A DNA stretch of 64,000 nt from a virus (Duplodnaviria > Caudoviricetes): IMG/VR virus record IMGVR_UViG_3300048623_000062, positions 17,144 through 81,143 of that record; one strand, given 5' to 3'. Position 1 is the stretch's first letter, and each line of letters starts with the position of its first letter. Both the position numbers and the translations under genes were made by a program. Shown piece by piece: positions 6,832-57,724 of this stretch. Below the pieces are notes generated by a model. The model was not told where the DNA came from. It searched no databases and saw only the letters and a program-made list of their open reading frames with translations.

Positions 6832-7356
6832 CTAGGCGTCCATCGCCCGGTTGTTGGTGATTCCGATGCGCAGCCGGCACAGCGACACGCCGCTGTGCAG
6901 CGCGCCCGCCACGTGCCTGTCGTCGCCCATCTCCCACGCGCATTCGAACGGCTCGATCGAGAGACGCCCGATACCGCCGGCCGCCATCAAATCCGGTGAC
7001 TGCGTCGCCAGGATCGTCGTGCGCATCGGATTGACCGCCGACGGGTCGAAGTCGATCGCCTTGCGATCCCCCGGAATCCGCGACTGCTTGCGACAGCGCG
7101 GACAGATGATGTGCGCGACCAGCGGCTCGCCGGGGATGGCGTAGACATCGACCGTCAAGAACTGGTCGCCGTACACCACCACCACCTCCTGCTTGCCTGC
7201 CGTCAGGCTGGTCGTCATCGAGATCCCGGTCTCCATGTCTCCGGCAATGCGCACGACCTCGCGCTCCTTGCCACTGGCAAGCGAACCCGGCTTCACGCCC
7301 ATCATGTCTTGCACGCGCGGGTCGCGGAGGTCGATGGAGAGCGAGTTCTTGGTCAT
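6832..7356 (-). CDS. hypothetical protein (CPRC motif)
   Basis: ORF track, operon context. Confidence 0.6.
   Translation of the reverse strand: MTKNSLSIDLRDPRVQDMMGVKPGSLASGKEREVVRIAGDMETGISMTTSLTAGKQEVVVVYGDQFLTVDVYAIPGEPLVAHIICPRCRKQSRIPGDRKAIDFDPSAVNPMRTTILATQSPDLMAAGGIGRLSIEPFECAWEMGDDRHVAGALHSGVSLCRLRIGITNNRAMDA
7268..7280. promoter_or_regulatory. palindromic operator TTGCCACTGGCAA, copy 1 (intragenic)
   Basis: Perfect 13-bp palindrome, extends to 15 bp. Confidence 0.75.
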
Positions 7357-7366
7357 GGAGCCGAGT

Positions 7367-7630
7367 CTACTTCTTCAGGAGCAAGACGGCGCCGAGCCCG
7401 GCCACGCCGAGCAGGAGAAGCGTCGTGGTAGAGATCCCGCCCTGCTGGGCGGCCAGCGCCGCCGCGAGATCGCGGTTGGTCTGGGCAGCCGCGGCAGCCG
7501 CGCCCGCTGACTGCTGACTGCGGTTGTAGAAGTCGAGGACCGCCTTGGCGCCGCCGCCGATGTCGTCCCAGAAGTCACCGACCCCGGCGTACCCGGATCG
7601 GCTGATGAGGTTGTTTCGCGCGTACGCCAT
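7367..7630 (-). CDS. small TM-anchored virion protein
   Basis: MAYARNNLISRSGYAGVGDF; C-terminal TM + KK. Confidence 0.75.
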   Translation of the reverse strand: MAYARNNLISRSGYAGVGDFWDDIGGGAKAVLDFYNRSQQSAGAAAAAAQTNRDLAAALAAQQGGISTTTLLLLGVAGLGAVLLLKK

Positions 7631-7643
7631 GGTGGGTGTCTCC

Positions 7644-8045
7644 TTAGCCGCGCTTCTTGAGGACGAGCGCGAGCATGATGATACCGCCACCGATGGCGAT
7701 CGCGGTAGTAGTAGACAGGCCGGTCTGGGGCTGCGGGGCGATGACGGTCGGCTGCTGGCCGGGGAGGAAGCGGAGGATGGAGTCCAGGATGCCGCCGCCC
7801 GCACTCATTCCCGCCGGGTGCGCCGGATCGGGATCCACGGCGCCCGGCGCGCGGTACGTCGACCCGTCGGAGTTGAACGTCGTCATGCCGCCGTCCGGGG
7901 TCGCGCAGTAGTTGCCCGGCTTCCGGTAACCATCGCCGATGGGAATCGTCGAGCACTGGTCATCCGACGAGAACCCCCCGAACGCCCCGAGGACGCCCCC
8001 GAGCAGGGAGCGCTTGTTCTTGACGAGGACGCGCTTCATGTACAT
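7644..8045 (-). CDS. small TM-anchored virion protein
   Basis: MYMKRVLVKNKRSLLGGVLGA; C-terminal TM + KKRG. Confidence 0.7.
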   Translation of the reverse strand: MYMKRVLVKNKRSLLGGVLGAFGGFSSDDQCSTIPIGDGYRKPGNYCATPDGGMTTFNSDGSTYRAPGAVDPDPAHPAGMSAGGGILDSILRFLPGQQPTVIAPQPQTGLSTTTAIAIGGGIIMLALVLKKRG

Positions 8046-8386
8046 CAGATCTTCCCCTTCTTCTTCGACAGGAGATAGTAAGCGAGGCCGCCGCCGGCCG
8101 CGAGGACGACGTAGGGCACGTAGTTGGTCTTTGGCTCGGGCTGCGCACCTTGCGCGCCGCCGCTCACGGCGCTCGAGAGCGCATCCTTGAGCCAGTCGAG
8201 CATGCTCGGGCCGCACGCGGCGCCAACGCGCTTGAACGGATGGTCGGCCGGAAACTGATCGCACGGGATCCGCTTGGGGCCGGTGATGTCGATGGGCGGG
8301 TTGCTCGAGTTCGGGTCGAAGATCGTCGGATCGACCTCGTGAGGAGCGGTGACCGGATCGCCCATGCCGCGTCGGTGGTAACTCAT
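8045..8386 (-). CDS. small TM-anchored virion protein
   Basis: MSYHRRGMGD; C-terminal TM + KKKGK. Confidence 0.75.
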   Translation of the reverse strand: MSYHRRGMGDPVTAPHEVDPTIFDPNSSNPPIDITGPKRIPCDQFPADHPFKRVGAACGPSMLDWLKDALSSAVSGGAQGAQPEPKTNYVPYVVLAAGGGLAYYLLSKKKGKI

Positions 8387-9132
8387 GAACTCTTCCGATC
8401 CTTGAGTAGGAGGTAGGCCCCCAGGACGGCGACACCGCCGACCAGGAGCACCGTGGTCATCGGGTATCCTGCGATCATGACGCCGTTCGCGTCTGGGATC
8501 TCCGGGCTGGGCGGAATGACGATCGGCCCATTGGGACCCATGACGACTCGGCCGCCGTCTGGAGTCGGGACCGCACCTCCTCCGCCACCACCACCGCTGC
8601 TTGGTACCGGGGGCTGCACGACAAGACCAGGACCAGGTGGTTGCGTCGGCGACGTGGGGGATGTTGGCGTCGTGGGTGACGTCGGGTTCTGGGTCGTCGC
8701 ACCACGATGATCACGCACGATCGCGCCGGGGATCGGGGCCTTGGTTCCCGGCACGAACCCGGGCGGGATCGCTGCGGGTGGCGGCGGCGGCGAATTCGGA
8801 CTGTGATACGCGCCGGGCTGCAGCGTTCGCACGCCTCGCATGCCGGGGAGTGGAACCGGGTTTGCCGGAGGGGTTGGTGTTGGCGTACGGGTTGGAACCG
8901 GCGCTGGGCGACGGTCCGGAGCGCGGCTTCCGCCCGGCGATCGCCGATCTGGCGTGTCGCGATCGATGGCCCCGAGAGCCCCCGATGCGACCGCCGCCAT
9001 GAGGCGATCTCGTGCGCGGGTCGCGCGCCCGACCTGAACCCGGCGGTAGCGGGTCGACGATGACACCATGTCGGATGCGGCGATCGCCCCCACGCCGCGC
9101 GTCGCGCGGTCGCTATCTCTCGTGTACCCCAT
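8383..9132 (-). CDS. Pro-rich TM-anchored virion protein
   Basis: MGYTRD...RGVGA; C-terminal TM + KDRK. Confidence 0.7.
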   Translation of the reverse strand: MGYTRDSDRATRGVGAIAASDMVSSSTRYRRVQVGRATRARDRLMAAVASGALGAIDRDTPDRRSPGGSRAPDRRPAPVPTRTPTPTPPANPVPLPGMRGVRTLQPGAYHSPNSPPPPPAAIPPGFVPGTKAPIPGAIVRDHRGATTQNPTSPTTPTSPTSPTQPPGPGLVVQPPVPSSGGGGGGGAVPTPDGGRVVMGPNGPIVIPPSPEIPDANGVMIAGYPMTTVLLVGGVAVLGAYLLLKDRKSS

Positions 9133-11786: not shown

Positions 11787-13097
11787 TCAGCCGCCGAACT
11801 TGCCGGCGAAGATGCCGTTGTAGAGTTGGCCCGGGTTGTCGTAGCTCGTACCGGCGGCCGGGATCTGCTTGGTGAACGACCTCGCCGGCACGGGCGCGAG
11901 GAACGACTGCGTCGGCACCGGCGCGAGCAGGTTGCCACCGCCACCCATGAGGCCGCCCATCGTGCCGCCGAGCTCCTCTTCGACGCCGAGTTCCTCCTCG
12001 AGGCCGAGCTCTTCCTCGACGCCATCACCGACCGCGATGTAGTCGGACAGCGTCATGCTGTCATTGATGGGCGTCGCGCCGACCGCGATGTAGTCGCCCA
12101 TCTGGACGTAGTCGGACAGGCCGATCATCGACTTGACGCTCGCCGGAGCGAACGATCGGATGATGGACTCGAGCGCGCCCAGGCCGGTGCCCAGCAGGAT
12201 GGCGTTCTTGTGCTTCGCCAGGAACCCCACCTTGCCAGCGCCCCAGTTCGCGAGCGCCATCGCACCGACCGACAGCACCGGGCCGGCGGCCGTACCGAGG
12301 AACGTCGCGCGCGCCGCGACCGAGCTCACGACGAACTTGCTGCCGTACAGCGCGGCGAACACCGGGATGGCGCTCTTGGCGATGTCGATCAGCCCCCCGA
12401 ACATGCCGGGGTTGCGACGGTAGCGGCGGTGGCCACCACGGCGCATGCGCCGCGCGCCACGGCGGCGGCGCCGCACGGACCCACGCCGACGACGCCGGCT
12501 GCGCCGCCGTCCCGGGTTCGAGGCGTACGCGCCGGGGTGCGGAACACGGAGGGTGCGGGCGCTATGCGCCGAGTGCGTGCGCGTACTGCGCCGCGTGCGC
12601 GAGCTCTTGCGGCGCCGACGACGGCGCTTCGGAGCGCTCGCCTTGCGTGCGCGGCGCCGACGACGGCGCTTCGGAGCGCTCGCCTTGCGTGCGCGGCGCC
12701 GACGGGTCCGGCCGATGCCGCCGACCTTGCCGGCCTTCCGACGAGCTGCCCAGCGCCGCTTCATGGCGCGAGACCGCTTCGATGATTTCTTCCGCTTCGC
12801 CATAGTAGCTTTGCTCCTGCGGGCTCGACGGCCACGCTTTGTGCTGGTCGACTTGTGCGCGCGCCTGCGCTTGCGAGTTGGACTCTTCTTGGATGCGCGG
12901 CGGGCCTTCCAATACCGCGCAAGCGCGGCGGGCTGCCGGCGCTTCCTGCGCGACCCGCCGGCTTTAAGATGCGCCAGGTAGCGCTTGGATAGCGCGCGCC
13001 GCTTTCGGCGGGCTGGGTTCTTGATCACCGCTCTGCCGCGGACCCGAAGCCCGCGACGCTTACCGTTGACGAAGAGGATGCCCACCTGATCGGACAT
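11787..13097 (-). CDS. Arg/Lys-rich core (DNA-condensing-like) membrane protein
   Basis: Very basic N-terminal half with NP motifs (KNPARR, SNPGRR, RRNPG), hydrophobic helices, acidic EEELG repeats. Confidence 0.7.
   Translation of the reverse strand: MSDQVGILFVNGKRRGLRVRGRAVIKNPARRKRRALSKRYLAHLKAGGSRRKRRQPAALARYWKARRASKKSPTRKRRRAHKSTSTKRGRRARRSKATMAKRKKSSKRSRAMKRRWAARRKAGKVGGIGRTRRRRARKASAPKRRRRRRARKASAPKRRRRRRKSSRTRRSTRTHSAHSARTLRVPHPGAYASNPGRRRSRRRRRGSVRRRRRGARRMRRGGHRRYRRNPGMFGGLIDIAKSAIPVFAALYGSKFVVSSVAARATFLGTAAGPVLSVGAMALANWGAGKVGFLAKHKNAILLGTGLGALESIIRSFAPASVKSMIGLSDYVQMGDYIAVGATPINDSMTLSDYIAVGDGVEEELGLEEELGVEEELGGTMGGLMGGGGNLLAPVPTQSFLAPVPARSFTKQIPAAGTSYDNPGQLYNGIFAGKFGG
12609..12704. 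repeat. 42-bp tandem repeat (about 2.3 copies) encoding RRARKASAPKRRRR
   Basis: Seen in sequence. Confidence 0.85.
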
Positions 13098-13117: not shown

Positions 13118-13372
13118 TCAACCCCCTATTTCGTCTTTCTTGCCACTGTCGTGACCGTCATCGGTCGGCAAGAAATCGCGCAGGACGATCACGAGACTGT
13201 CCTCATCGTCCAGCTTTTGATAGCTGCCAGGCTGGGTTAGACCGTCCAGCGCTTTGGATAGTTGGTCGGCGGCACGGCCGATGCTCAAGTACGCGTCGAT
13301 GGCACGGACGCACGCGGGGGATGCGCTGAGTTCTTGGCCGCCGCTACCCTCGGCAAATCTGACGAACGACAT
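13118..13372 (-). CDS. hypothetical protein
   Basis: ORF track, operon context. Confidence 0.55.
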   Translation of the reverse strand: MSFVRFAEGSGGQELSASPACVRAIDAYLSIGRAADQLSKALDGLTQPGSYQKLDDEDSLVIVLRDFLPTDDGHDSGKKDEIGG

Positions 13373-16717: not shown

Positions 16718-17187
16718 CGAGACCTCCGCTTCGAGAGCATGCAGTAGAGGATGTAGGCCCCGATCCCGTAGGTGACGATGCCGCCCGGAACTTCCGGCAG
16801 AAAGTCGAGCGGACCATCGACCGCAACCGGGAACGTCATCGGCTGGTAGGCCATCGCGACGGTCGGCTGGATACGGAAGCCCTTGCGCTCCGCATCGATC
16901 AGCGCCTTCACGTTGGCACCCCAGGACATTCGCTCCCAGTTCGGGCCAGCAACCTGCTCTAGAGCACGCTCAGTCGCCTCATCGAGCCGCCCGCTCACGA
17001 GCACGTCCATCGCCCCCAGCTTCCAGAGCGCTCGCTGGATCTGCTGGACGAGGATGATGATCTGGCTGGCCTTGGGGTCCGTGGTGGCCGGAGCGACCAT
17101 CATGTACGGGATGATGCCCGTAGCGTTGAAGTTCCCGACGCCGATGGCGGTCAGGAGCTCGCGCGATTCCATCGATGTCTCGCTCAT
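16714..17187 (-). CDS. peptidoglycan-binding-like domain protein, TM-anchored
   Basis: IQRALWKLG...SGRLDEATERAL; TM + KRRSR. Confidence 0.6.
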   Translation of the reverse strand: MSETSMESRELLTAIGVGNFNATGIIPYMMVAPATTDPKASQIIILVQQIQRALWKLGAMDVLVSGRLDEATERALEQVAGPNWERMSWGANVKALIDAERKGFRIQPTVAMAYQPMTFPVAVDGPLDFLPEVPGGIVTYGIGAYILYCMLSKRRSR

Positions 17188-18911
17188 GACTTCTTCTTTT
17201 TCTTGGTCAGGAGGGCCACTGCTAGCACGCCGCCGCCCGCAACCAGCACCAGCGGCAGCACTGATTTCTTAACCACGACCGGCGGCGGTGGTGGCGGCGG
17301 TGGGGCGCCGTTGCACGCGCGCGCCGCCGCGCCAGCACCGGCATTTCCGGCCGCTGCGCCCGCAGCCGGATTGCCAACATAGGCCCCGGCAACGGCCCCG
17401 GCTGCGGCGCCGACGCCTGGCGTCGAGACGAGGTCGCACGTGAGGTCGCCGACCTTGCGGACGCCATCGGCGATGGTCTTGCCAACGACATGCGAGATCG
17501 CCTGCCCGATGCCGAGCGGGTCCGCGATCTTGATGAGCGTCTGTGGAAGCTTGATGACCGTGTTGATGATCGACCCCCACGTGCTCACGTCCGGCACCTT
17601 GGACAGCCACACCCGCAACGCCTGTGGGTTCTCCGGTGACCAGTCCTTATAGTCAGTCCCAGGCCAAAAAATCATGTGCAACTGCAGGTTGTTCCCGTTG
17701 TTGGGATCCTGGAGGTATGCGACCGCCGTCCCAGGGTTGAACATATTCCTGGCCGTCAGGAGGTTCACCTTGGTTTCTGGCCCGATCCCGACTCTCGCGA
17801 GCATAGCGAGTTCTTCGGGCCGGAACGGCCGACGATGCTCGAGGTCCTTCAGGGGGCCATCCGGCTTGGTCAGCAAAAGTTCCCCGATGGCCTTCACCTG
17901 CTCATTCGTGAGCGTGCGAAGGTCGCGGGCCGCAAAATCCGGCTTGCGGCCACCTCGGTCAAGGTGCAGCGGCTGTCCCGATCCGGCGGCCACCGTAGGG
18001 CTCTGAAAGTTCATTCCGCCGATCGAGAACGTTCCCGGCGGTGGCGGTGGCTCTGAGATGCCGCCCGGCGCACCGGTGCTCTTGGTGACGGTCCACGGTG
18101 TCCCGTCCGCCTTGCATGGCATCGGATTCGGGGCCACGCCCACGCGCACACGCACGAGATACCCACCCTTCCCATCGTCGACCCAGTTGTATCCCTCGGG
18201 CGGCAGGCAGTTGAGGGCCGGCTTGGCCGGCGCTGCCGTGTCGCCCATCGCCCCTGGTGAACGCATGTAGCACCCCAGGCCCAGGGACGTACCAGCCTGG
18301 GGTGCGACGCGACGAGCGCCCTTGGTGACGAGCTCGGCCGTGACGCCAGCGGCCATCGCGCGCGCGATTGCCAGTGGCAAGGCGTCCGCGGGCGATACAC
18401 CATGCGCGAGGTAGCGACGAAAGATGTCCTGCGTCCGGTCGTACAGCGACTTGTCGATGCGGCCCATGATCCCGCGGAGCGCGGTCTCCTGCTGGGCGCG
18501 CGGCAGCGTCGAGATCTGCGACAGGATCGCCTGAGCCGCCTTGGCGCCGTAGGTCTCCACCGCGGGGGGCAGTGGCTCGTCGCCGCTCAGCGGCTGCACC
18601 GTGACTTGACGGCCGCCGCCCGGCAGCGGGCGAGCCGCGACGAGCTTCGGGCGCTGGTTCAGCCACGGCGGGATCTTGGGGCCGGAATACGACCCCGAGG
18701 GCTGCCACTTCGTGGTGAACGTGCCCTGCCCGTACCCTTCATCGTCGATGTACTGCGGCACGGCGAAGCCGCCGTTGCCGACGCGCGGGTCATCGTAGGT
18801 GCCGCGCGGCATCTGCTTGGTGATGAACGCGCGGCGCTCGAGGCCCTCGTCGTCCACGTTGTCCGGGATCGCGTACCCCGAGGACCATGGTGGTGGTAGG
18901 TTGTATGCCAT
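17184..18911 (-). CDS. large TM-anchored virion protein
   Basis: MAYNLP; internal SLGLG and AMGD; poly-Pro then TM + KKKKK. Confidence 0.7.
   Translation of the reverse strand: MAYNLPPPWSSGYAIPDNVDDEGLERRAFITKQMPRGTYDDPRVGNGGFAVPQYIDDEGYGQGTFTTKWQPSGSYSGPKIPPWLNQRPKLVAARPLPGGGRQVTVQPLSGDEPLPPAVETYGAKAAQAILSQISTLPRAQQETALRGIMGRIDKSLYDRTQDIFRRYLAHGVSPADALPLAIARAMAAGVTAELVTKGARRVAPQAGTSLGLGCYMRSPGAMGDTAAPAKPALNCLPPEGYNWVDDGKGGYLVRVRVGVAPNPMPCKADGTPWTVTKSTGAPGGISEPPPPPGTFSIGGMNFQSPTVAAGSGQPLHLDRGGRKPDFAARDLRTLTNEQVKAIGELLLTKPDGPLKDLEHRRPFRPEELAMLARVGIGPETKVNLLTARNMFNPGTAVAYLQDPNNGNNLQLHMIFWPGTDYKDWSPENPQALRVWLSKVPDVSTWGSIINTVIKLPQTLIKIADPLGIGQAISHVVGKTIADGVRKVGDLTCDLVSTPGVGAAAGAVAGAYVGNPAAGAAAGNAGAGAAARACNGAPPPPPPPPVVVKKSVLPLVLVAGGGVLAVALLTKKKKKS
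18368..18380. promoter_or_regulatory. palindromic operator TTGCCAGTGGCAA, copy 2 (intragenic)
   Basis: Perfect match. Confidence 0.75.
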
Positions 18912-22418: not shown

Positions 22419-22685
22419 GCCGCATCATGCCAGTCTCATGCGGGGTTTCCGTGGGACGAGTGTGGGTTTTCCGTGGGTTTTCCAAGCCCCAGATCTGGGT
22501 ACCTGGAGCCCCAGGGAGATCTCCGACCCCACCCTGTAGCGTAGGGACGCCTCACCCAAGCACTGAAAACCCTCTAGGAAACCCTCTGAGTGGTGAAATC
22601 CGCCCGGTCTGGTGTGTCCAAAAGTCGACAGTTCACCACTCCGGAGTGGCCGAGCGGCGCGTTAACCCCGGTCGTCTCGTCGATC

Positions 22686-22698
22686 TTGCCACTGGCAA
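22686..22698. promoter_or_regulatory. palindromic operator copy 3, in the divergent control region
   Basis: Perfect match, intergenic. Confidence 0.8.
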
Positions 22699-22945: not shown

Positions 22946-23194
22946 ATGCGCGCCATCCTCCTAGGCGTTCTCCTGTCGGCATGCGCCGTAGAGGCGCCCG
23001 AACCCGCCCCGGCGCCCGAGGCCAGTGCGTTCCCGTTGCCGCGGTGCAAGACGACGCACTGCACCACGGTGGAGTGCACGGACGACAGCGGCGTGTGCAC
23101 ATGCCACTGGCCACCGGCGTACGACATTCTCTGTGAGGGTGTCGAGGGTGACGCGATGGGCGATGGCCACGACCACACTCACGGTGCGCCGTGA
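22946..23194 (+). CDS. Cys-rich putative lipoprotein
   Basis: LLSAC lipobox-like; HCTTVEC...CTCHWPP shared with 31313. Confidence 0.7.
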   Translation: MRAILLGVLLSACAVEAPEPAPAPEASAFPLPRCKTTHCTTVECTDDSGVCTCHWPPAYDILCEGVEGDAMGDGHDHTHGAP

Positions 23195-38684: not shown

Positions 38685-38687
38685 ACC

Positions 38688-38700
38688 TTGCCACTGGCAA
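38688..38700. promoter_or_regulatory. palindromic operator copy 6, intergenic
   Basis: Perfect match. Confidence 0.8.
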
Positions 38701-38718
38701 CCAGAGGACCCTACCCCT

Positions 38719-39519: not shown

Positions 39520-39526
39520 GGACCAC

Positions 39527-39880
39527 ATGCCAGCTGCACTGACCCTTCCGGAGGCCGCCGGGGCCGCGTTCGACAACCTTCAACTCAAGTGGGTATCGGA
39601 CAATCTCAAGAGCAGCATGACGCTGTTTTCGAACGGCATCTCTGGTGTCGGGTCCGATCAGCAGGCGGACTCTCACCCGATCCGGAACTGGTTCGCGCTG
39701 ATCGCGAACCTCGCCAATCAGATGCCGTCGTTTGCGGTCGCCATCGGCGATCTGACGCTGTCGGCCGAGTACATCTACCGGATTTGCTGGGTCACCCAGC
39801 AGTTGCTCGACCAGTCCCTCATCACGTCCGGGCAAGCGGCGGCGATCCTCATCGAGTACAACGCGGCGTTCACTATCTAG
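39527..39880 (+). CDS. helical hypothetical protein
   Basis: GAGG SD. Confidence 0.65.
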   Translation: MPAALTLPEAAGAAFDNLQLKWVSDNLKSSMTLFSNGISGVGSDQQADSHPIRNWFALIANLANQMPSFAVAIGDLTLSAEYIYRICWVTQQLLDQSLITSGQAAAILIEYNAAFTI

Positions 39881-41454: not shown

Positions 41455-41825
41455 CGACGCCCCGCTGGCAGGGGGAACGGGAGCGCGACCGAGTTGGCGA
41501 CGAGCTCGGCGATGCGGACGCCGATCATCTCGACCATCTTCATGTAGTCACTGATGAGGCCGGACGGACAGAATGACCCACGCATGCCCTTGGGTTCGCC
41601 GGTGATCGTGTCCACCGTCTCCCATTCGCGGACGATCGCGAAGGTGATGATCCCGTCGCGGCGACGCTGACTTATGATCCCGACCATCCCGTTGGCGCCC
41701 GTGAGCCGGTCGATGTCCACGAACGGTGCCGCCGACTGCGAGCGCAGCGGCTGATGCTCCGGATTGAGGTGCGGCGCCAGTCGGCTCCGCCGTGAATACG
41801 TCGCAGATTCCTTGTGGTTCGCCAT
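41451..41825 (-). CDS. hypothetical protein
   Basis: Start MANHKE inferred. Confidence 0.55.
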   Translation of the reverse strand: MANHKESATYSRRSRLAPHLNPEHQPLRSQSAAPFVDIDRLTGANGMVGIISQRRRDGIITFAIVREWETVDTITGEPKGMRGSFCPSGLISDYMKMVEMIGVRIAELVANSVALPFPLPAGRR

Positions 41826-41959
41826 GTGAGACACACCGTACCATCTGCTGGTGTATCCGTGGTAAGAAGACACTACGGGTAGCGGCTCGAACCATAGCGC
41901 CTCGGGGAGACCCCAAGGACAGGGTGTATTTGGCTCGGTGTCTCAGTCCGCCGAGTAAC

Positions 41960-41987
41960 GTCGGATGGCAAGGGGATGCACCATCCG
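41960..41987 (-). CRISPR. isolated stem-loop-AC unit (CGGATGG/CCATCCG-AC)
   Basis: Fits the unit pattern; single copy. Confidence 0.3.
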
Positions 41988-42238
41988 GGACCTACATTCA
42001 ACAGACTCGAGCCGTTGCCCGGCTTTCATCGCTTCCGGCGCTGTTGGTCGCAGGCGTTGAGGTCGCTGACCTATTTTGGGCAACTGGCGCTGTAGGTGTC
42101 GTTGCACCATGGCTGCTTGCTCGTCGCCACCGCCCCTGCGGCCACCTGCGTGAGGTGGGCTGTGGTGAGCGTGCGGATGGTCTCGAGCTTCAGGGCGACG
42201 CGCGGTCTGGTGTTCTTCATCCCCCAGACTAGCACGCC

Positions 42239-42589
42239 TCAGCGCGACGGCGGAGTCGCGTACTCGGGGCCGACCATCGACGTGTCGACGACGATCGCCG
42301 CGGGGAACTGCGACGGCTCGGCCGCGATCACCTCGACCTGGATGGTCGCCTGCTTTCCGAGGGCGTTGATATTCACGTTGATGGGGCCGGGCGACTCGGT
42401 CACCCCGTCGATATACACCGTCCGGCCGTCGGGGAGCACCCCAACGCGACAGCGCTCGCTCGGGCAACTCGCCACGATCGGCGAGGTCGTGTCGAGCACG
42501 TTGTTCGCCGATCCGATGGAATCGAACGCGGAGTACAGGAGGATGGGACCGAGGTTCCGAGACTTGCCAACATGAATTTGGAATTGCAC
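42239..42589 (-). CDS. small beta-rich protein
   Basis: GTG start inferred. Confidence 0.45.
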   Translation of the reverse strand: MQFQIHVGKSRNLGPILLYSAFDSIGSANNVLDTTSPIVASCPSERCRVGVLPDGRTVYIDGVTESPGPINVNINALGKQATIQVEVIAAEPSQFPAAIVVDTSMVGPEYATPPSR

Positions 42590-42714
42590 TGGCCGTGGTG
42601 TACCATGGCGCTGCCCAAGCCGACCGCAGTAGGTCTCAGGTAAGAGCCGGGTCCTGAGGCCCACGTACCCACCGTGGAATCGTCCCTGTCAGCTACGGTC
42701 GGCCCGGCTTGGGT

Positions 42715-43623
42715 CTATCGTCGCCTGCGCTTCGCGCGTTCAACCACGGGCGGCGCCTTGAGCAGCCCGCTCACGAGGCCAGCGCCGATGTTGTCGAGCT
42801 CGTCCTGCGACACCGCGCTCACGTAGCGCGCTGCGGTCTCCATGCTCTCCCACCCCATGTACCGCTGTAGCTTCACGATCGCGTTCGGGTCGCCGGCCAA
42901 CTGGTTCAGGTAGTTCGTCGCGAACGTGTGCCGGTAGCGGTGCGGAGACATGTTCGCGATGTCGACCTTCGCTGCGGTCCGCTTCGCCGCGCGATACACC
43001 ATCACCCGAGCCACCTCCGGGTTATCTGATGCGCTGATGAGATCGCGGACGCGCTCCCAGTCGGAGAAATCGGCGAGCTCGCGCAATTGCGCCCGGATCG
43101 GCTCGGCAGAGATCTCCATGCGCTTGCGACCCTTACCTTCGTACACAAGCTTGCCAGTGGCAAGCGCGCGCTGCACATCGGCGTTCTGCATGCGCAGGAC
43201 GTCACTGCAGCGAAGCCCACGGATGGCCATAATGAGCAGCACCTGGCGCATCGCCTCGTTGCGCATTGAGCACGTCTGCATGTGCTGGATGACCTCGCGC
43301 CACTGCTCGAGGTCGAGCGGTTGCTTGGTGGTCAGGCGTCTGGCCGGAGGGAGTCGGATGTCCTTGAGTACCTCGGCCATCTCCGGGTTCTTGGAGAACT
43401 TCGCCCACGCGCGCAGCGCAGCCATGTTGGTGCGCAGCGAGTTCGGGGCCAGGCGGCCGGCCACGAGGCGCCGGGTGAGTTGGCGATCCTTGGCGCATGA
43501 CTTCAGGTTCGACACGTAGAGCGCCGCCGTGCCGATTGACCGACCGCGGTCGAGAACCCAAGAGCGGAACTTCGCGAGGTTATGCTCGGTGATTTCCATC
43601 GGCAGCGGTAGGATACCATTCAT
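42715..43623 (-). CDS. tyrosine recombinase/integrase
   Basis: GLRCSD, HRYRHTFA and MGWESMETAARY; start 43623 or 43599. Confidence 0.9.
   Translation of the reverse strand: MNGILPLPMEITEHNLAKFRSWVLDRGRSIGTAALYVSNLKSCAKDRQLTRRLVAGRLAPNSLRTNMAALRAWAKFSKNPEMAEVLKDIRLPPARRLTTKQPLDLEQWREVIQHMQTCSMRNEAMRQVLLIMAIRGLRCSDVLRMQNADVQRALATGKLVYEGKGRKRMEISAEPIRAQLRELADFSDWERVRDLISASDNPEVARVMVYRAAKRTAAKVDIANMSPHRYRHTFATNYLNQLAGDPNAIVKLQRYMGWESMETAARYVSAVSQDELDNIGAGLVSGLLKAPPVVERAKRRRR
43151..43163. promoter_or_regulatory. palindromic operator copy 7 (in integrase gene)
   Basis: Extends to a 17-bp palindrome. Confidence 0.75.
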
Positions 43624-44374
43624 GGTGAGCGCGCGAACGTTTGTCGATAATCCGCCATGGGCAACCCAACTACTGGCCAATGCATACGAGTCTCTCGAGG
43701 CTCGTGTTCGGCCGGACTGGTTGCCCAAGCTATCTCGGGTCACTGCCGGCAAGGCAACGCAGCGATCCGCGAAGGTCGTGATGAAGGCCGAGATGCGGGA
43801 GTACGGCTGCGGCGCCTTCGGATGCGTCATGCCGACGCTTGATGAAACCGTTGTTCTGAAGCTCACCTCCGACGACACCGAGGCCGAGTTCGCGAGGGGG
43901 ATCGCCGCCACGCTCGTCGCGCCGATCTGCGTCCGCTACTACGACATCCTCGAGACGGATCAAACCTTCAAGGGGGAGAGGGTCTGGCTCCTCTGGCGCG
44001 ACAGCGCCAACTACGTGGGCGACGTCTACGCCGCCTTCGGTGACATGAAGGGCGACGTGGCGTCGCATCTCATCAATGAGCAGCACCGGTCAGCAGCGTT
44101 CGTGCTCGTCAAGGTGTGGAAGATGAGCAAGCAAGGCACCAAGGGCGACCTGTCGGCGGTCGCCCCGGAGATCAAGATCTGGCGCGCCAGCGTGCAGGAC
44201 ATCATCGCGTCGGCCGTCAAACCGATCGCTGACCTGTTCTCTGGCGTCCTCCGGGTGTTTGACGAACAGAGGATCTTCATCGGCGACGTGCACGAGGGAA
44301 ACGTTGGACAGGTGACCCAGGACGGCGTGGAGCGGTGGGTAATCACTGACCCAGGTCACGTGGTGGTGTTCTAG
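43622..44374 (+). CDS. protein kinase-like protein
   Basis: GCGAFG, VLKL, DVHEGN and ITDPG. Confidence 0.8.
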   Translation: MVSARTFVDNPPWATQLLANAYESLEARVRPDWLPKLSRVTAGKATQRSAKVVMKAEMREYGCGAFGCVMPTLDETVVLKLTSDDTEAEFARGIAATLVAPICVRYYDILETDQTFKGERVWLLWRDSANYVGDVYAAFGDMKGDVASHLINEQHRSAAFVLVKVWKMSKQGTKGDLSAVAPEIKIWRASVQDIIASAVKPIADLFSGVLRVFDEQRIFIGDVHEGNVGQVTQDGVERWVITDPGHVVVF

Positions 44375-44632
44375 AGGACCAGAGACACTACCGGTAGACC
44401 TGCACCTCCGTGCAGTGTGCGGGGAGATCTGCCGCTCTATGTCATCAGCGCGCGATCAGAGTATCGTTTGCCACATGTGGCGCCTTCACGTGCTTGCCCG
44501 GTTCCTCAGTTGGTATGACCTCTTGGGTGTCGGGTTGGCGATGTTAGATGGGTCATACTGGAAAACGCCGATCTACGACGATCGGAACTTCCTGCCGCCG
44601 TCCGAGGCGGGTGCGGCGTTCGAAGGAGGGGA

Positions 44633-44827
44633 TTGATGCCTCGCCTGATCGGGTGTCGCAAGCCACCGATCTGCATCACGGTGGCATCCGAAACGGTGTG
44701 CGTAAGCAACCGATTCACACTTCTCGTTCTCGAGACCGAGGTCGTCCGTCTGCCGCCACTCACCGAGGACCAGCCGACGCCGCGTGACTGGCCCGCCGCG
44801 TGGCTGGTGAAGTGGAGAGATCGATGA
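44633..44827 (+). CDS. small protein
   Basis: GGAGG SD. Confidence 0.45.
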   Translation: MMPRLIGCRKPPICITVASETVCVSNRFTLLVLETEVVRLPPLTEDQPTPRDWPAAWLVKWRDR

Positions 44828-45027
44828 AACGCATCGTCGACATCGCGCTCACACCACTCGGTGATGGGCGCGTCCACGTCTACGCCATCCACAAGACCGC
44901 AGATGTCACGACGGTTCTATTCGACTGCTCGGTCGAATCTGGACGGGTCACGAGAACGATGGACGAGGTCGCACACCCAGAATCCAACGTGCGCAATATC
45001 TCGATCTGCGGTCGGGAGCGGTCATGA
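44824..45027 (+). CDS. small protein
   Basis: ATGA overlap. Confidence 0.5.
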   Translation: MKRIVDIALTPLGDGRVHVYAIHKTADVTTVLFDCSVESGRVTRTMDEVAHPESNVRNISICGRERS

Positions 45028-46142
45028 GCGCCTTCACTCGTCTTGGATGCTCCATCTGGGACTGGGAGGTGTTCACCGAACTCACGATGCTGGGGCGCAA
45101 CTTGTGGCTCGGGCTCTACACGTCGTCGGAGGCCAAGCGCCACGTCCCCGGACTGTGGCAAGGCGGCATTGCGACGATGGCGGACGCCGCGCGGATGCGC
45201 CCTGATGAAGCACGCGACGCGCTCGAGGAACTCTTGACTCGCGAGGTCGTCGAGTACGACCCCAAGACGCGTGTCCTCCGGCTCTGCGAGCTTCCGGATG
45301 CCGGTGAGTACCCGAGCAACGGCAAGGTGATCCTGAACTGGTGGACGAAGTTCAGAACGGTGCCCGACTGCCCGGTGCGGAACGCGCACGTGCGAACGAT
45401 CGCGTGGCTCCTGACCGAAGGAGCGAAGAGGTCAGGCAAGGAAGCCGCCTCACCTCACCATGCTGAGGCGTGGTCAACCACGTTCGGGCTGATCAAGGTT
45501 CCGGCGAATCGGCGTCGTGGTCTGCGAAGTCTGTCGGATAACTCCGACACCGGAACACCTTCGCAGCCGTCTCTGTTCGGGATCCTCGCTGCCCCTTCCG
45601 GAGCCTCCGGGTCCGATTCAGAGTCTGAGTCGAGTTATCCACAGGATGTGAACAGTTCTGTGGATAACTCTGCCGTTCTGCGTCAATCGAATAAAATCAG
45701 GGGTCCGGAAACGGTATCCGATACGGTATCCGATACCGTATCCGATACCAACAGGATCCCGGATCCCGGATCCCGGATCCCGGATCTTCTTTCTTTCTCT
45801 GGAGAACGGACTAGCAAGCGATCGGTCCTGACGCTGGTCCCAACCACGCTGCCGTACAGCGCAAGCGACGTGCTCCGCGAAGTCGCCAAGGCTGGAGCAT
45901 GGGACCCATCGCTCGATTTGGCCTATCAGGCTGCCCTGGGAGCGATGATTCAGACCTGGTCGGCGGCAGGGATACCCCTGGACGATTTTCGCGTCCTGGG
46001 CGAGTACAGCGCGCATTCCAGGGTCACCCGAGATGCGAGGTGGCTGGTGGGTTGCGATCTACCCAAGGAAATCTCGCAAGCGCGCCGCACGCTGGAATGG
46101 CGTGACGCGCAGGTGGCGATGATGCGAGAGTCCAGTTCATGA
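45024..46142 (+). CDS. phage replication initiator-like protein
   Basis: Helical N-terminal domain, low-complexity linker with DNA repeats, C-terminal domain, as in lambda O-type initiators. Inferred. Confidence 0.6.
   Translation: MSAFTRLGCSIWDWEVFTELTMLGRNLWLGLYTSSEAKRHVPGLWQGGIATMADAARMRPDEARDALEELLTREVVEYDPKTRVLRLCELPDAGEYPSNGKVILNWWTKFRTVPDCPVRNAHVRTIAWLLTEGAKRSGKEAASPHHAEAWSTTFGLIKVPANRRRGLRSLSDNSDTGTPSQPSLFGILAAPSGASGSDSESESSYPQDVNSSVDNSAVLRQSNKIRGPETVSDTVSDTVSDTNRIPDPGSRIPDLLSFSGERTSKRSVLTLVPTTLPYSASDVLREVAKAGAWDPSLDLAYQAALGAMIQTWSAAGIPLDDFRVLGEYSAHSRVTRDARWLVGCDLPKEISQARRTLEWRDAQVAMMRESSS
45709..45788. repeat. iteron-like tandem repeats: 12-bp x3 and 7-bp GGATCCC x4
   Basis: ACGGTATCCGAT x3, then GGATCCC repeats. 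Confidence 0.75.
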
Positions 46143-48175: not shown

Positions 48176-48429
48176 CGGTGCGGTGCAACCTCGACAACGA
48201 GGAACTCGCCACTGGTGGTCGCGGACTGCTGCGTGATCACGCCGAGGAGATGGCCGAGGAGTTGCTCCACCTTCGCGCCAAGATGGGCGCGCTCACCACC
48301 CTCGGTGCCATCACGCAGGAGCGCGATCGCCTGAAGGAGATCTTGGCGTCATCACGGGCGCAGTGCGAGCACGCCCAGGCCGAGGTGCTTCGTCTGAAGG
48401 CGCGCCTCATCGAGGCGCTTGGCCGATGA
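48169..48429 (+). CDS. coiled-coil protein
   Basis: ORF track. Confidence 0.55.
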   Translation: MVTVRCNLDNEELATGGRGLLRDHAEEMAEELLHLRAKMGALTTLGAITQERDRLKEILASSRAQCEHAQAEVLRLKARLIEALGR

Positions 48430-48944
48430 GTTCCGACAGTTGGTGCTCGCCACCCGAGATCACCGAACGGCTGGTCGAGTTGTTCGACGGACCGGTGGAC
48501 GTCGACCCATGCTCGAACGGCCGCTCGATCGTGGCGGCGCGTCAGGCGTTCACCGCGCGTGGACTCGCGCGACCGTGGTTGCTCTCCAAGCCGGTCGACC
48601 GCACATGGTACCAGAACGACCCATACAGCCAGGCGTACCCGTGGACCTACAAGATGTTGGCAGAGCTTGCCAGTGGCAACATCGTTGAGGGAGTTCGCCT
48701 GTCCATGATGTCGACGTCCACCGTGTGGTGGGAGGATATGTGCAAGTGCCTTACGCATAACCCGCGGATTCTGGCGCTCAAGCGCATCCCGTTTTTGGAC
48801 CCCGACGCGCCCGTGGCTGGGCAGCGCCGGATGACGTGCCGGTTCGAGCCGGCGCTGACGTACTTCGGGCCACGTAGCCGCGTGGCCAAGTTCGAGCGCA
48901 TCTTCAACCCGCTCACTCGTTGGGCGGCCTGGGGGCAATCATGA
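48426..48944 (+). CDS. phage N6-adenine methyltransferase-like protein
   Basis: WCSP, DVDPC and YQNDPYS (NPPY-like). Confidence 0.75.
   Translation: MSSDSWCSPPEITERLVELFDGPVDVDPCSNGRSIVAARQAFTARGLARPWLLSKPVDRTWYQNDPYSQAYPWTYKMLAELASGNIVEGVRLSMMSTSTVWWEDMCKCLTHNPRILALKRIPFLDPDAPVAGQRRMTCRFEPALTYFGPRSRVAKFERIFNPLTRWAAWGQS
48667..48679. promoter_or_regulatory. palindromic operator copy 8 (intragenic)
   Basis: Perfect match. Confidence 0.75.
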
Positions 48945-51206: not shown

Positions 51207-51477
51207 TCAGATCAAGGCGCTCCGCGCCCACGGTCACAGTTGCAAGGTCTGCGGGGCTTCCGGGGGGCCGTGGGAGCCGTCAAATGACAGGAACCGCTGC
51301 CGCAACTGCTACCGCACATTCCCTCACAGCGAGGGATGTACTGCCGCAGCATGCATCCTCGCCGACCTGCTGGTCGAGCTCAAGATCAAGCTGACCGAGC
51401 GCTACGGCGACGACCACCTTGGTCGTGATCGTGCGCTGGCCGAGGCGCAGGAGATCTTGAACGCGGTCAGGCTATGA
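51193..51477 (+). CDS. zinc-binding small protein
   Basis: CKVC and CRNC. Confidence 0.55.
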   Translation: MQIDDQIKALRAHGHSCKVCGASGGPWEPSNDRNRCRNCYRTFPHSEGCTAAACILADLLVELKIKLTERYGDDHLGRDRALAEAQEILNAVRL

Positions 51478-52172
51478 AGCGACTGCCCATCGCGATGACG
51501 CTCAAGGAGGCCGAGGCGATCGCGGGGCGACTCGGCCATCCCAGCAAGATGCCGGGCTACTCCTACGGCATCAGCGCTCAGAAGTGCATCACGGGCAGCA
51601 AGCTTCGCCAGATCCCAGGGTCGGTATGTCGGTCGTGCTATGCGATGACCGACTGGTACCGCTCCTGGAAGCCGCTTCTACAGGGGCATCAGCGCCGGTG
51701 GAACGGACTGCGCCATCCCAGATGGGTGGACGCCATGGTCACGATGATCGCGATGAAGTGCTCGCCGCCGAACAACTACTTTCGCTGGCACGACTCCGGC
51801 GACCTTCAGGGTGTGTGGCACCTCGAGAACATCGCCGCCGTCTGCGATCGCACGCCGGACGTCAAGCACTGGCTGCCGACCCGTGAGGTTCCGTTCGTGC
51901 AGCAGTTCCTTGCCACTGGCAAGGTGCCGATCAACCTCGTGATCCGGCTGTCAGCGATGATGGTCGACACCGAGCCCGTGCTACCGGCCGACCTCGCAGG
52001 GTTCCCGACCTCGGCCGTCTCGAGCGTGCCGGAAAGCTCGAGTAAGTTCCGGCTCGTGGAAGGCAAGGGGTCGATCGAGTGCCGCGCGGTCGAGACCCGA
52101 GATAACAGGTGCGGCGACTGCCGGGCGTGCTGGGATGCCCGGGTGACGAACGTGACTTACCCGCAGCACTGA
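51474..52172 (+). CDS. phage gp88-like protein
   Basis: SKMPGYS, C...C..CYA, FRWHDSGD, HWLPTRE and C.DCRACW. Confidence 0.75.
   Translation: MKRLPIAMTLKEAEAIAGRLGHPSKMPGYSYGISAQKCITGSKLRQIPGSVCRSCYAMTDWYRSWKPLLQGHQRRWNGLRHPRWVDAMVTMIAMKCSPPNNYFRWHDSGDLQGVWHLENIAAVCDRTPDVKHWLPTREVPFVQQFLATGKVPINLVIRLSAMMVDTEPVLPADLAGFPTSAVSSVPESSSKFRLVEGKGSIECRAVETRDNRCGDCRACWDARVTNVTYPQH
51910..51922. promoter_or_regulatory. palindromic operator copy 9 (intragenic)
   Basis: Extends to a 17-bp palindrome. Confidence 0.75.
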
Positions 52173-54605: not shown

Positions 54606-55406
54606 ATGCCCAAGCCAAAGCAGCCGCTGGATCAGACCGTTCCATATCGCGTCCGGGATCGCTTCGTCGAAGGCGAGCCCATGAAGGTGTGGGGCGAGGA
54701 CCTCTCCTACGACGACGCCATCCGGCTCAAAGAGAAGGTGGTCGCGTCCAAGCAGAGTCGCACCGCGCGCCTCGAGCCGATGAGCGTGCCGCGACCGGAC
54801 ACCGGGATCGTGATCGACACCGCAGCGCTGGCGGAGGCGTTCTCCGGCGACTCCGGCGACTCCGGCGGGTCCGGGGTCAAGACGGTGTTCAGCATCGAAG
54901 GATACGACCCGATCGTGGCGCCGGCGAACGGCCTGGTGGTGAAGGTTCCCCTGGGGGGCGAACTCCTGGTGAATGACCAGGTGGTGCCCATTCCTGCTTC
55001 CGTGCAGGCAGGCGACCGCGTTCAGTGTCGGCCGCTCGACCCCGAGCTCGCCGCCGCCCGCGAACGCGCCCTCGCGGCGGCCCGGCCGGTCGCACAGGCC
55101 CGCAATGCCGGGCGCGCAGCCTACAGGGACCGCACGGTCAAGCAGCCGGCGCCCCGCACGGGGCCGGTGCCCCGCGATAAGACGGTCAGCAAGCAGCCGG
55201 TACACGTTCGGCTCGACCAGCCGATCGTCGGCGCGGCCAAGCCACTGGCAAGCCCGCTCAAGGTGGCGACGATGCCGATCGGCGAGCAGTTGCCCGATGA
55301 CGCGCTGTACGACGAGGATCTGAGCGATCTCGTGGCGAACGTCGGCGGGTCCGAGTCCGACGACGACATGGCCCACGCGAAGCGCGTGCGGGACCAGCAG
55401 GGGTGA
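54606..55406 (+). CDS. hypothetical protein
   Basis: ORF track. Confidence 0.65.
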   Translation: MPKPKQPLDQTVPYRVRDRFVEGEPMKVWGEDLSYDDAIRLKEKVVASKQSRTARLEPMSVPRPDTGIVIDTAALAEAFSGDSGDSGGSGVKTVFSIEGYDPIVAPANGLVVKVPLGGELLVNDQVVPIPASVQAGDRVQCRPLDPELAAARERALAAARPVAQARNAGRAAYRDRTVKQPAPRTGPVPRDKTVSKQPVHVRLDQPIVGAAKPLASPLKVATMPIGEQLPDDALYDEDLSDLVANVGGSESDDDMAHAKRVRDQQG

Positions 55407-56148: not shown

Positions 56149-56574
56149 ATGCGGGTACTTGATGCTGTCTGGGAGCTTGGTTCGCGATTCGCGAACCTCA
56201 ACCTATCCTGGTTCCAAGCGCTCCACGCGGTGGTGCACACGCCGGATCCGGACATGAACCCGTTCGTGATCGCGCACGCGCGGCGCGAACTCGGCGACGA
56301 CTGGGCAGGAGCTGTCTACGAGCGCGCCCGCGCTGAGACGTCCGCCGTCCCCGAGGTCTACATCGATGCGGACCCCACCGAGCCTGGCGAGCCGGGGTGG
56401 CCGTCCGTGGAGACGGTGATCCGCAAGCTGTCGGCGATGCGCGACGCGGACCCGGACATCGGTGCGATGCGGGTGATGTTGGACAAGGGCAATGGCCTGG
56501 TCGAGCTCGACCTCATCAAGGCGGTGGCCACCGGCGCACCCGGCGACGACGGCGTCGTCATCATGTTCCGATGA
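56149..56574 (+). CDS. hypothetical protein
   Basis: Start uncertain. Confidence 0.55.
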   Translation: MRVLDAVWELGSRFANLNLSWFQALHAVVHTPDPDMNPFVIAHARRELGDDWAGAVYERARAETSAVPEVYIDADPTEPGEPGWPSVETVIRKLSAMRDADPDIGAMRVMLDKGNGLVELDLIKAVATGAPGDDGVVIMFR

Positions 56575-56939
56575 TGGTGGACTGGGACACCTTTGTCGTG
56601 GGTATGATCGCTTGCGCCATCGTCCTGGGATGCGTGGTTGCGATCTTCGACATCCGGCGCGACCATCAGGCCATGCTGGTCATTGACGCGCGCAGCGGCA
56701 GGGAGATGCACGTCGGCGACACCGTCCGGTACCCGGGCGGTGAGAGCGTGACGCTGCTCGAGGCGAAGCCGGGCCTGCTCAAGGCCATGGCGAAGCTCCG
56801 GATGGTCCACCTCGACTACGCCGATCCGGAGCTCGAGATCGCGCCGCGGTACGTGACGCGCGAGGATTGGGTGCCGCTGCAGGTCAGGTGGACGCACCCG
56901 AGTTACTTCGGAAAGTGGGTCGGGTTCATCCCGAGTTGA
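56571..56939 (+). CDS. TM-anchored small protein
   Basis: N-terminal TM. Confidence 0.65.
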   Translation: MMVDWDTFVVGMIACAIVLGCVVAIFDIRRDHQAMLVIDARSGREMHVGDTVRYPGGESVTLLEAKPGLLKAMAKLRMVHLDYADPELEIAPRYVTREDWVPLQVRWTHPSYFGKWVGFIPS

Positions 56940-56950
56940 CGAGAATCCTC

Positions 56951-57268
56951 GTCTCGGCAATATGGTGCGCCCGTCCCGGCGCGGAAAGCGGCCGAGCTCG
57001 CGTTCTGTTCACGTCCGAGGTCATCGCGCGCAGTGTTCGGTCATCGCTGCAAAGACGCGATGCTGTCGTTGCCGCGCAGCCTGCGACAGGAATCCATCAG
57101 GTCCATCCGTGAAGCGCAGATGGATGCGCCTTGCGATCAACGCTGCAGTCCGTTCGCGAGGCACGTGATCTCTTGGTCCGTTCCGGATCGAGGGCCGCCC
57201 TCAGCGCGAACGGCTACGCTTGCTCCGCTCCGGCTACAGTCCAGCGATCCAGAGTCGCTGGCTACGCT
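56951..57268 (-). CRISPR. non-canonical array A: 8 GAC-ended units with heterogeneous stems
   Basis: Unit ends at 57239, 57176, 57148, 57101, 57040, 57020, 56973 and 56951. Confidence 0.6.
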
Positions 57269-57660
57269 AGGACGCTCGCGAGCACGTGAAAGTCGCTCTC
57301 GCATGCCCAGAACGAGAGAGCGGCCTTCATGTTCGATGCGCCGGCCATGGGGAGGAGGCCGCGACACAGCCCTGCGATGAGCGCGATCGCCTCCGGCGTG
57401 CGCCCGGTCTCGTCGATGGGCATCACGCCAAACGACGTCGACCACGCCGCCTTGCATCTGACGATCTCCACGCAGGATCGTTGCATGGCGTCGAACCCGA
57501 ACCGTGTGGCGACGTAGGCCATGGCGCCAGCGATCGCCGCCGCGGTGTCGTTCGCGTTGAGCATTCCGATCGGAACTCGGGCGATGAAGCCCGGCGACAC
57601 GGAGGTAGCGAGAGAGCGGACGTCGGGGATGTCGTTCTTCCAGTGGTCGATGGCGGTCAT
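57262..57660 (-). CDS. hypothetical protein between arrays A and B
   Basis: AGGAG SD, ATG 57660. Confidence 0.7.
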   Translation of the reverse strand: MTAIDHWKNDIPDVRSLATSVSPGFIARVPIGMLNANDTAAAIAGAMAYVATRFGFDAMQRSCVEIVRCKAAWSTSFGVMPIDETGRTPEAIALIAGLCRGLLPMAGASNMKAALSFWACESDFHVLASVLA

Positions 57661-57711
57661 CACAAACTCCTGTGGTTGCAGATTGCACACGGTGGCGTAC
57701 CTCGTCAAGTC

Positions 57712-57724
57712 TTGCCAGTGGCAA
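57712..57724. promoter_or_regulatory. palindromic operator copy 10, 3 bp upstream of a TTGACG (-35-like) on the minus strand
   Basis: Minus strand reads CTTGCCACTGGCAAG-AC-TTGACG. Confidence 0.8.

Follow-up and report, generated by a model that had tools for sequence, protein, structure and literature searches.

The genome of an uncultured soil virus (Duplodnaviria; Caudoviricetes) carries an evenly spaced series of copies of the 13-bp palindrome TTGCCASTGGCAA, and these sites are non-random and under selection. We infer that the palindromes are probably specific sites at which a partner-less ParB-family protein of the virus itself, encoded at 33351–34682, binds or loads. The DNA analysed, referred to below as the window, is a stretch of 64,000 nucleotides that covers bases 17144–81143 of the 81,143-bp IMG/VR record IMGVR_UViG_3300048623_000062. 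The whole record is designated G000, and the coordinates given are those of the window unless another genome is named. G000 was estimated by CheckV to be 94% complete. G000 is probably a complete circle: there is a 9-bp overlap between its ends, and the junction is spanned in a collinear relative.

Number, conservation and placement of the palindromes

An exact search of the window recovered all ten perfect copies that a sequence-only reading of this DNA had listed, at the same positions (given in the list below) and separated by the same gaps (11100, 4318, 5584, 4897, 5521, 4463, 5516, 3243, and 5802 bp). No mismatch-free copy was obtained in 100 dinucleotide-preserving shuffles of the window, and the motif therefore stands far above the background, as that reading had proposed. 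When up to two mismatches were allowed, the window contained 13 copies, whereas 0.79 were expected. The whole record contained 18 such copies (11 perfect, three with one mismatch, and four with two mismatches) against an expected total of approximately 0.8, and CTTGCCACTGGCA was among the commonest 13-mers of G000. The density of the sites was approximately one per 4.5 kb around the genome.

The symmetrised logo of 77 sites from seven records showed a 15-bp unit, c-TTGCCA-S-TGGCAA-g, in which the mismatches gathered at the outermost position of the arms. Since nothing was conserved outside these 15 bp, the motif is a short dyad site and not a piece of a longer repeat or a mobile element. Its geometry, with 6-bp arms and a central S, is the same as in the operator of the plasmid protein KorB. 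A full-text literature search for the motif returned unrelated primers only.

The conservation of the motif was then examined in related genomes, and it was found to be kept both in a close relative and in distant ones. The close relative, G001, is an 86.4-kb circular virus that is approximately 90% identical to G000 and collinear with it. Every site of G000 had an orthologue in G001: ten of these were perfect, one had a single mismatch in an arm, and one had its central base flipped. Within the sites, the two genomes differed at 2 of 143 positions, whereas the flanks differed at 169 of 1320 (13%; P = 3e-6).

Five distant records were found by the alignment of homologues of the ParB-like protein. 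One of them, G002 (75.6 kb), came from IMG/VR, and the others had been binned into metagenome-assembled genomes (MAGs) as contigs of 72.8, 83.9, and 88.7 kb and a fragment of 8.5 kb. Most of the long contigs had overlapping ends and are therefore circular assemblies. The distant relatives had 45–55 genes in common with G000, with a median protein identity of 42–48%. The same 13-mer was present in all five records and reached 15–20 copies (up to two mismatches) per full genome, compared with at most one expected.

In the MAGs, the copies were confined to the virus-like contig: the other 23 Mb contained no perfect copy, and the counts of one-mismatch copies there equalled those of a reversed-pattern control. 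A generic host repeat, which the sequence-only reading had named as the finding that would speak against it, was therefore rejected in the case of the four testable MAGs. These MAGs were labelled as Myxococcales, Galbitalea, Peribacteria, and Bradyrhizobium. Their virus-like contigs (JAYUVX010000411.1, DASYEE010000012.1, CAZZDD010000002.1, and JBARNF010000759.1) would place members of the family in bins of four phyla, including Peribacteria of the candidate phyla radiation. Three of the contigs are complete (73–89 kb, two with clear end overlaps) and the fourth is the 8.5-kb fragment. The placements are almost certainly binning artefacts and the labels disagree with one another, so that they are unusable as host calls.

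Individual sites were also found to persist at equivalent places. All of the distant genomes had a site near residue 50 of a 391-amino-acid glycosyltransferase-like gene, where the flanks could not be aligned and the 13-mer was nevertheless retained. Other positional orthologues across the distant genomes were located at residue 154 of the integrase, in the divergent control region (in all genomes), at the core-gene junction at 38688, and upstream of the gene 57262–57660. Between G000 and another of the distant relatives, G006, approximately one third of the sites were orthologous, yet their number and pitch were kept, which suggests selection on the density of the sites in addition to selection on individual sites.

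Among other viral contigs, matches to the 15-mer were singletons or chance pairs, save in G001, G002, and the unrelated virus G007 (IMGVR_UViG_3300025918_000011, 69 kb). The latter contains five perfect 13-mers at its positions 41194–45039. Each lies in a repeated promoter-like unit beside a leftward start codon and is followed by ATTGSCAAT, and no ParB-like protein was detected in this genome. Further complete relatives (G012, G013, G014, and G016) were obtained by a search with a highly conserved core protein. The sites of the window, together with the gene and the promoter element that concern them, are as follows (a strand is given where one applies).

7268–7280: perfect site TTGCCACTGGCAA within the leftward gene 6832–7356; variant copies occupy the orthologous position in G012 and G013.
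13141–13153: decayed site TTGCCACTGtcgt with three mismatches, intergenic, just upstream of the gene 11787–13097.
18368–18380: perfect site within the gene of a 575-amino-acid protein (17184–18911, minus strand).
22686–22698: perfect site; it lies in the divergent control region, and the first rightward open reading frame (ORF) begins 80 bp downstream of it.
23101–23113: two-mismatch copy ATGCCACTGGCCA, intergenic; it may be a chance match.
28270–28282: perfect site at a gene junction, overlapping the first codons of the ORF 28259–28750.
29491–29503: two-mismatch copy TCGCCAGTGGCAT; it may be a chance match.
33167–33179, plus strand: perfect site whose left arm TTGCCA is placed as the -35 element of the promoter of the ParB-like gene; likely an autoregulatory operator.
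33190–33195, plus strand: -10-like hexamer CATGAT, 17 nt after TTGCCA; this arrangement is kept in most metagenomic relatives.
33351–34682, plus strand: gene of an orphan ParB/KorB/Noc-like protein of 443 amino acids, assigned by a fold model and a family profile.
38688–38700: perfect site in a 34-bp gap between two co-directional core genes.
43151–43163: perfect site within the tyrosine-integrase gene, at approximately residue 154; the same residue is occupied in G002, G004, and G012.
48667–48679: perfect site within the gene 48426–48944.
51910–51922: perfect site within the GP88-family gene 51474–52172.
55239–55251: two-mismatch copy AAGCCACTGGCAA within the gene 54606–55406.
57712–57724: perfect intergenic site, with the leftward core gene 57262–57660 starting 52 bp downstream of it; the same place is occupied in G002 and G004.

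The widest gap of the window had been said to contain a partial site at 13140. Such a site is present at 13141–13153, but with three mismatches it is not significant on its own; sites with one or two mismatches were found at the equivalent place, upstream of the same gene, in the distant relatives G004, G005, and G006. Each of the six full genomes has a site at the place of the one at 22686, the central base of which is flipped in G001. The junction at 38688 carries a site also in G002, G006, G012, and G013, which in the last two is of a TTTCCA variant. In G001, the orthologue of the 51910 site has one mismatch, and the same residue is occupied by a site in G002.

For the analysis of placement, we used gene calls based on codon usage and 75 sites with at most one mismatch from six genomes. 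The analysis showed that 28 of the 75 sites were intergenic or straddled a gene boundary, whereas 8.5 were expected from the coding fraction (P = 5e-9). Many of the intergenic sites were located in very short gaps between co-directional genes, that is, within operons. The remaining 47 sites (63%) were intragenic and occurred in all three frames and on both coding strands, which agrees with the earlier statement that the sites fall in different reading frames; their preference for gene ends was not significant (P = 0.23). Also as described before, one site of the window precedes the ParB-like gene (184 bp upstream of its start codon) and one lies in the divergent intergenic region. The spacing was more even than that of randomly placed sites: the coefficient of variation of the gaps was 0.38–0.60 in the six genomes compared with 0.93 for random placement, with P values from 0.019 to <1e-4, which are not independent, as some orthologous sites are common to these genomes. 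A -10-like hexamer at a distance of 16–18 nt was found on neither side of the sites, with the exception of the site at the ParB-like gene in G000 and G001 (2 of the 75 sites, which equals the 2% background). As only this site has a correctly spaced -10-like hexamer, the motif is not a general promoter element.

The ParB-like protein and the site at its promoter

The product of the gene 33351–34682, the start codon of which was set by comparison with homologues, had been assigned to the ParB family, and structural analysis supported a true ParB/KorB/Noc fold. The protein consists of an acidic disordered N-terminus, a ParB/Srx domain with the motifs NPR and DGQRR, a helix-turn-helix (HTH; RSESWCSKIL), a linker, a helical C-terminal domain, and a Lys-rich tail. 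The AlphaFold2 model had a predicted local distance difference test score (pLDDT) of 82.7 overall and above 90 over residues 104–348. Foldseek matched this model to Noc, ParB bound to cytidine diphosphate, and KorB, all with a probability of 1.0 and with E-values down to 2.5e-8. In the VIA-align comparison, KorB (8qa9_B) came first, with a Z-score of 15.6 over 200 residues and a root-mean-square deviation of 4.6, followed by Noc (Z 14.4) and the Caulobacter ParB–parS complex (Z 13.3).

The family comprises at least 56 metagenomic homologues with conserved motifs N-P-R, D-G-Q-R-R, T-R-E-x-L-S-S-F-E, and, in the HTH, R-S-E-S-W-V-S-K. The first two were invariant or nearly so across 57 homologues. 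In the alignment of the family profile with Spo0J of Helicobacter pylori (4UMK), the conserved motifs corresponded to box I (QPR), box II (AGERR), box III, and the HTH. The N-terminus was acidic, variable in length, and missing in some members. Individual members matched the TIGR00180, Noc, HTH_ParB, ParB_N, KorB, and RepB models below the cut-offs; the Pfam domains were seen in 24 of the 57 members for HTH_ParB, in 8 for ParB_N, and, weakly, in 8 for KorB. One member matched the Noc model TIGR04285 at 6e-11. The window protein itself scored 20.4 bits against TIGR00180, the cut-off of which is 58.45, and thus lies outside the curated models (Pfam PF02195 and NCBIfam TIGR00180). Judging by its modelled fold, and not by a curated sequence model, it is a distant member of the superfamily. 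The gene heads a conserved co-directional module, in which the genes at 36119–39880 have orthologues in all relatives. One member of the module (242 amino acids, 37450–38178) resembled an SLT lytic transglycosylase by language-model features only (score 0.95, 168 shared features).

A copy of the palindrome was found just upstream of the ParB-like gene in all full genomes and in 22 of the 22 metagenome loci with enough upstream DNA. In most lineages, this copy has the arrangement TTGCCA, a 17-nt spacer, and CATGAT. As the dyad spans the -35 element and a part of the spacer of the promoter of the gene, the layout is classic for autorepression.

In some lineages, the arms of the palindrome were altered. 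The lattice of G012 consists of TTTCCA-S-TGGAAA, with 13 sites within one mismatch of the relaxed consensus TTKCCASTGGMAA, and the sites of G013 are hybrids of the TTGCCA and TTTCCA arm types. Several of these variant sites are orthologous to TTGCCA sites of G000, namely those at the promoter of the ParB-like gene, at the 38688 junction, in the integrase gene, and in the genes at 7268 and 18368. A symmetric change of the arms in concert at many orthologous sites would be expected of a single dimeric reader that shifts its specificity, and the comparison points to one shared, dimeric, lineage-specific reader of the sites. Residues T297/D298 of the ParB-like protein, which are otherwise nearly invariant, are S-E in G012 and G013 and P-E in G014. 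These changes are the sole basis for a covariation between the protein and the arms and are only suggestive of it.

No gene for a ParA partner was found. The deviant Walker-A motif KGGxGK[ST] was absent from every frame of the six genomes, and no match to AAA_31 (PF13614) or CbiA (PF01656) was obtained in five complete genomes, whereas the positive control matched 14 of 14 known genomes. ParA is thus absent from the family, and a role of the sites in classical partition, one of those offered by the sequence-only reading, is unlikely.

Interpretation of the sites and alternative readers

Among the known systems, KorB of the IncP-1 plasmid RK2 has 12 OB operators (TTTAGCSGCTAAA; operator TTTAGCGGCTAAA; PMC11790492; PDB 8QA9, 8QA8, 1R71). 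It is the best structural match, and in both systems the sites are 13-bp palindromes with 6-bp arms and a central G/C, occur at approximately one per 5 kb of the replicon, and are in part located at promoters and in part far from any. In both proteins, the glutamate of the GERR motif is replaced (by Ala in KorB and by Gln here), the N-terminus is disordered, and a long linker and a C-terminal domain are present. The systems differ in the sequence of the arms and in the replicon, which here is a virus-like element, and the sequence identity of the proteins is only approximately 20%. Furthermore, the sites of KorB are centred on promoters, whereas those of the virus are evenly spaced and mostly lie within or between the genes of operons. 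RK2 also encodes the partners IncC/ParA, KorA, and TrbA; no ParA partner and no recognisable clamp-locker of the KorA or TrbA type is present here, where no model search aimed at the KorA and TrbA families was made. The sequence-only reading had described the sites as a KorB-like operator network. The geometry of the operator, a density like that of the 12 OB sites, and the copy on the gene's own promoter throughout the family bear out the likeness to KorB. The term operator network fits less well: as no -10 element follows the other sites and 63% of the sites lie within genes, loading sites distributed over the whole genome are the better description.

A second palindrome, CCACTCCGGAGTGG, is located at 22636–22649, 37 bp upstream of the ParB-type site of the divergent region. 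It occurs as one copy at the same place in G001, G002, and G005, and the related locus L160 has three copies of its core ACTCCGGAGT. By analogy with RK2, where the KorA operator OA adjoins OB, it may be the operator of another regulator.

The Noc protein of the Bacillus chromosome (PDB 7NFU, 7OL9) is also an orphan ParB paralogue without ParA, and its palindromic NBS sites are spread over the whole replicon; it was the second-best structural match and is the family of the TIGR04285 match mentioned above. Noc has an N-terminal amphipathic membrane-targeting helix, whereas the N-termini of the viral proteins, as inspected in the alignment, are acidic, variable, or absent. Partner-less ParB-like proteins on mobile elements also occur among the orphan proteins of the ParB-CTPase fold surveyed in PMC12704722, and long-distance clamp action is reported for one of them, BisD of ICEclc (PMC12409273). 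An evenly spaced genome-wide lattice of sites in a virus family is not described in the parts of the two papers that were consulted. The arrangement is known from plasmid RK2 and barely described for viruses.

If the palindromes are read by the ParB-like protein, it would bind them as a dimer, with one HTH on each TTGCCA arm. At its own promoter, the protein would cover the -35 element and the spacer and probably repress its own synthesis. The universally conserved site of the divergent region, beside CCACTCCGGAGTGG, would probably be a part of the early/late or lysogeny decision. The remaining approximately 15 sites, which run through operons and coding sequence at an even pitch of 4–5 kb, may be loading points. 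As is the case with KorB and ParB, the dimers loaded there would turn into sliding clamps whose closure depends on nucleotide. Every position of a 73–89-kb genome would then be within approximately 2–3 kb of a loading site, and a coat over the entire genome could form. Candidate roles of such a coat are the genome-wide silencing of a quiescent or episomal state, the compaction or clustering of the viral DNA, and its protection. We propose tentatively, and with less confidence than in the binding, that a family of 72–89-kb soil viruses keeps under selection an evenly pitched lattice for a partner-less ParB clamp that would coat the whole genome and act in silencing, compaction, or shielding and not in segregation, with a specificity that drifts in concert from TTGCCA to TTTCCA.

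ParB-family clamps that use cytidine triphosphate (CTP) are known from the segregation of chromosomes and plasmids, from Noc, and from the long-range silencing by KorB on RK2. If true, a lattice without ParA in a virus family would extend this principle to a whole viral genome that is controlled or packed by one sliding clamp. The family provides natural experiments, as it includes lineages with a full lattice, a lineage with a symmetric change of the arms, and a lineage with the autoregulatory site alone. The distance that a clamp has to travel, the determinants of the spacing of the sites, and the co-evolution of protein and site specificity become testable questions.

Several observations weigh against the assignment of the sites to the ParB-like protein. 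The window protein matched no Pfam family at E ≤ 0.1 and no PHROG. At the canonical hydrolysis positions, box I has N for Q, the GERR motif has Q for E, and box III has GT for EN, which makes the use of nucleotide uncertain; yet KorB, with the motif GARRYR and thus without the glutamate of GERR, still hydrolyses CTP (PMC11790492). According to PMC12704722, the nucleotide specificity of the ParB-CTPase fold cannot be read from the sequence. We had considered GQRR as the mark of a hydrolysis-dead clamp and withdrew this idea in view of KorB. The lineages with altered arms retain the recognition helix RSESWVSK without change, and no covariation is seen in it. The lattice of G014 is thin, and G016 has an intact ParB-like gene with a single palindrome, TTGCAA-C-TTGCAA, upstream of it and no dispersed sites; a search for a variant lattice in G014 and G016 revealed nothing beyond this palindrome. 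Since G016 keeps the gene without dispersed sites, the lattice is dispensable for the protein. The site at the promoter is the constant feature of the family; the lattice is a further elaboration, which a lineage can lose. Finally, the 13-mer occurs five times in the repeated promoters of the unrelated virus G007, in which no ParB was detectable, so that a different reader of this sequence is possible.

Such a reader would be another dimeric DNA-binding protein of the virus or the host, for which the ParB-like gene is merely one target. The copies in G007, the loss of the lattice from G016, and the invariant recognition helix speak for it, and no function is known for most of the 37 core genes. 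We nevertheless regard it as a minor possibility. No perfect copy was present outside the virus contig in the 23 Mb of the four MAGs, the sole site that was never lost is the one on the promoter of the ParB-like gene, and the sites of ParB, KorB, and Noc are typically compact 13-bp dyads of this kind. As a 6-bp arm has only 4096 possible values and the collection comprises 2.9 million viral contigs, coincidence is to be expected, and we regard the sharing of the 13-mer with G007 as a coincidence.

It is quite unlikely that the sites form a classical centromere, in which they would be the parS copies of a plasmid-like prophage served by a ParA from the host or by an unrecognised motor. The IR centromere sites of phage N15 are dispersed along its genome. 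In ParABS systems and in N15, with SopB and the four separate sites IR1–4 (PMC7205306), a ParB fold with an HTH and a site beside its gene are found, as in the virus. The members of the family, moreover, are free circular contigs of 72–89 kb with end overlaps, and not integrated prophages, in 185,579 species genomes. Those systems, however, need ParA or SopA, and the searches described above detected neither a deviant Walker-A protein nor an AAA_31/CbiA match. The N-terminus is acidic and variable, unlike a basic ParA-activating peptide, the virus encodes a tyrosine integrase, and partition needs one locus and not an even lattice of approximately 18 sites.

TTGCCA might instead be a -35 element that can be read in both directions and not the dyad of a protein. 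It is one base away from TTGACA, and the 33167 copy is followed by CATGAT at the proper distance in G000 and its relatives. We rejected this very improbable explanation as the -10 element is confined to the site of the ParB-like gene, 47 of the 75 sites are intragenic, and both arms are conserved together with the flanking C and G. It is scarcely credible that the sites are targets of restriction-modification or DNA modification, for example, by the C5-cytosine methyltransferase encoded directly upstream of the 33167 site, or an RNA hairpin or terminator: the methylase occurs in the G000/G001 clade only and its G000 copy is frameshifted, phage genomes avoid restriction-modification targets and do not carry them in excess or at even intervals, and a 6-bp stem with a 1-nt loop cannot fold, the sites moreover being on both coding strands and in all frames. 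The binding of the palindromes by the ParB-like protein is thus the reading that we prefer.

Other features of the genomes

Nearly all of the large proteins of G000 and its relatives (943, 688, 575, 555, 436, and 379 amino acids) were without a match in Pfam and PHROGs. Terminase, portal, and capsid families were not recognised in these genomes, and the classical P-loop was absent from the real frames of G000. The recognisable genes encode a GH25 lysozyme with a peptidoglycan-binding domain, the tyrosine integrase, a DUF5131 protein, a GP88 protein, an epimerase/dehydratase, and a beta-helix tailspike-like protein. An ORF of 653 amino acids at 57926–59887 gave weak matches to the TNB domain of Cas12f/TnpB and to transposase PHROGs.

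The C5-cytosine methyltransferase gene at 32110–33145 can be read only by switching between all three forward frames, over which its motifs I and IV, the ENV-like and QRR-like motifs, the WPTP region, and the final GNAIVP are spread. Its orthologue in G001 (L122:15447–16568, minus strand) is a single ORF of 373 amino acids with a match to PF00145. As the frames are split in G000 and the orthologue is a single ORF, the G000 copy is either a pseudogene or affected by assembly indels.

A CRISPR-like array was found in G016 (G016:C1:17009–18470, L196). It consists of approximately 13 repeats of approximately 32 bp, which contain the hairpin CTCAAGGC-ATGGA-GCCTTGAG and recur with a period of 63–73 bp.

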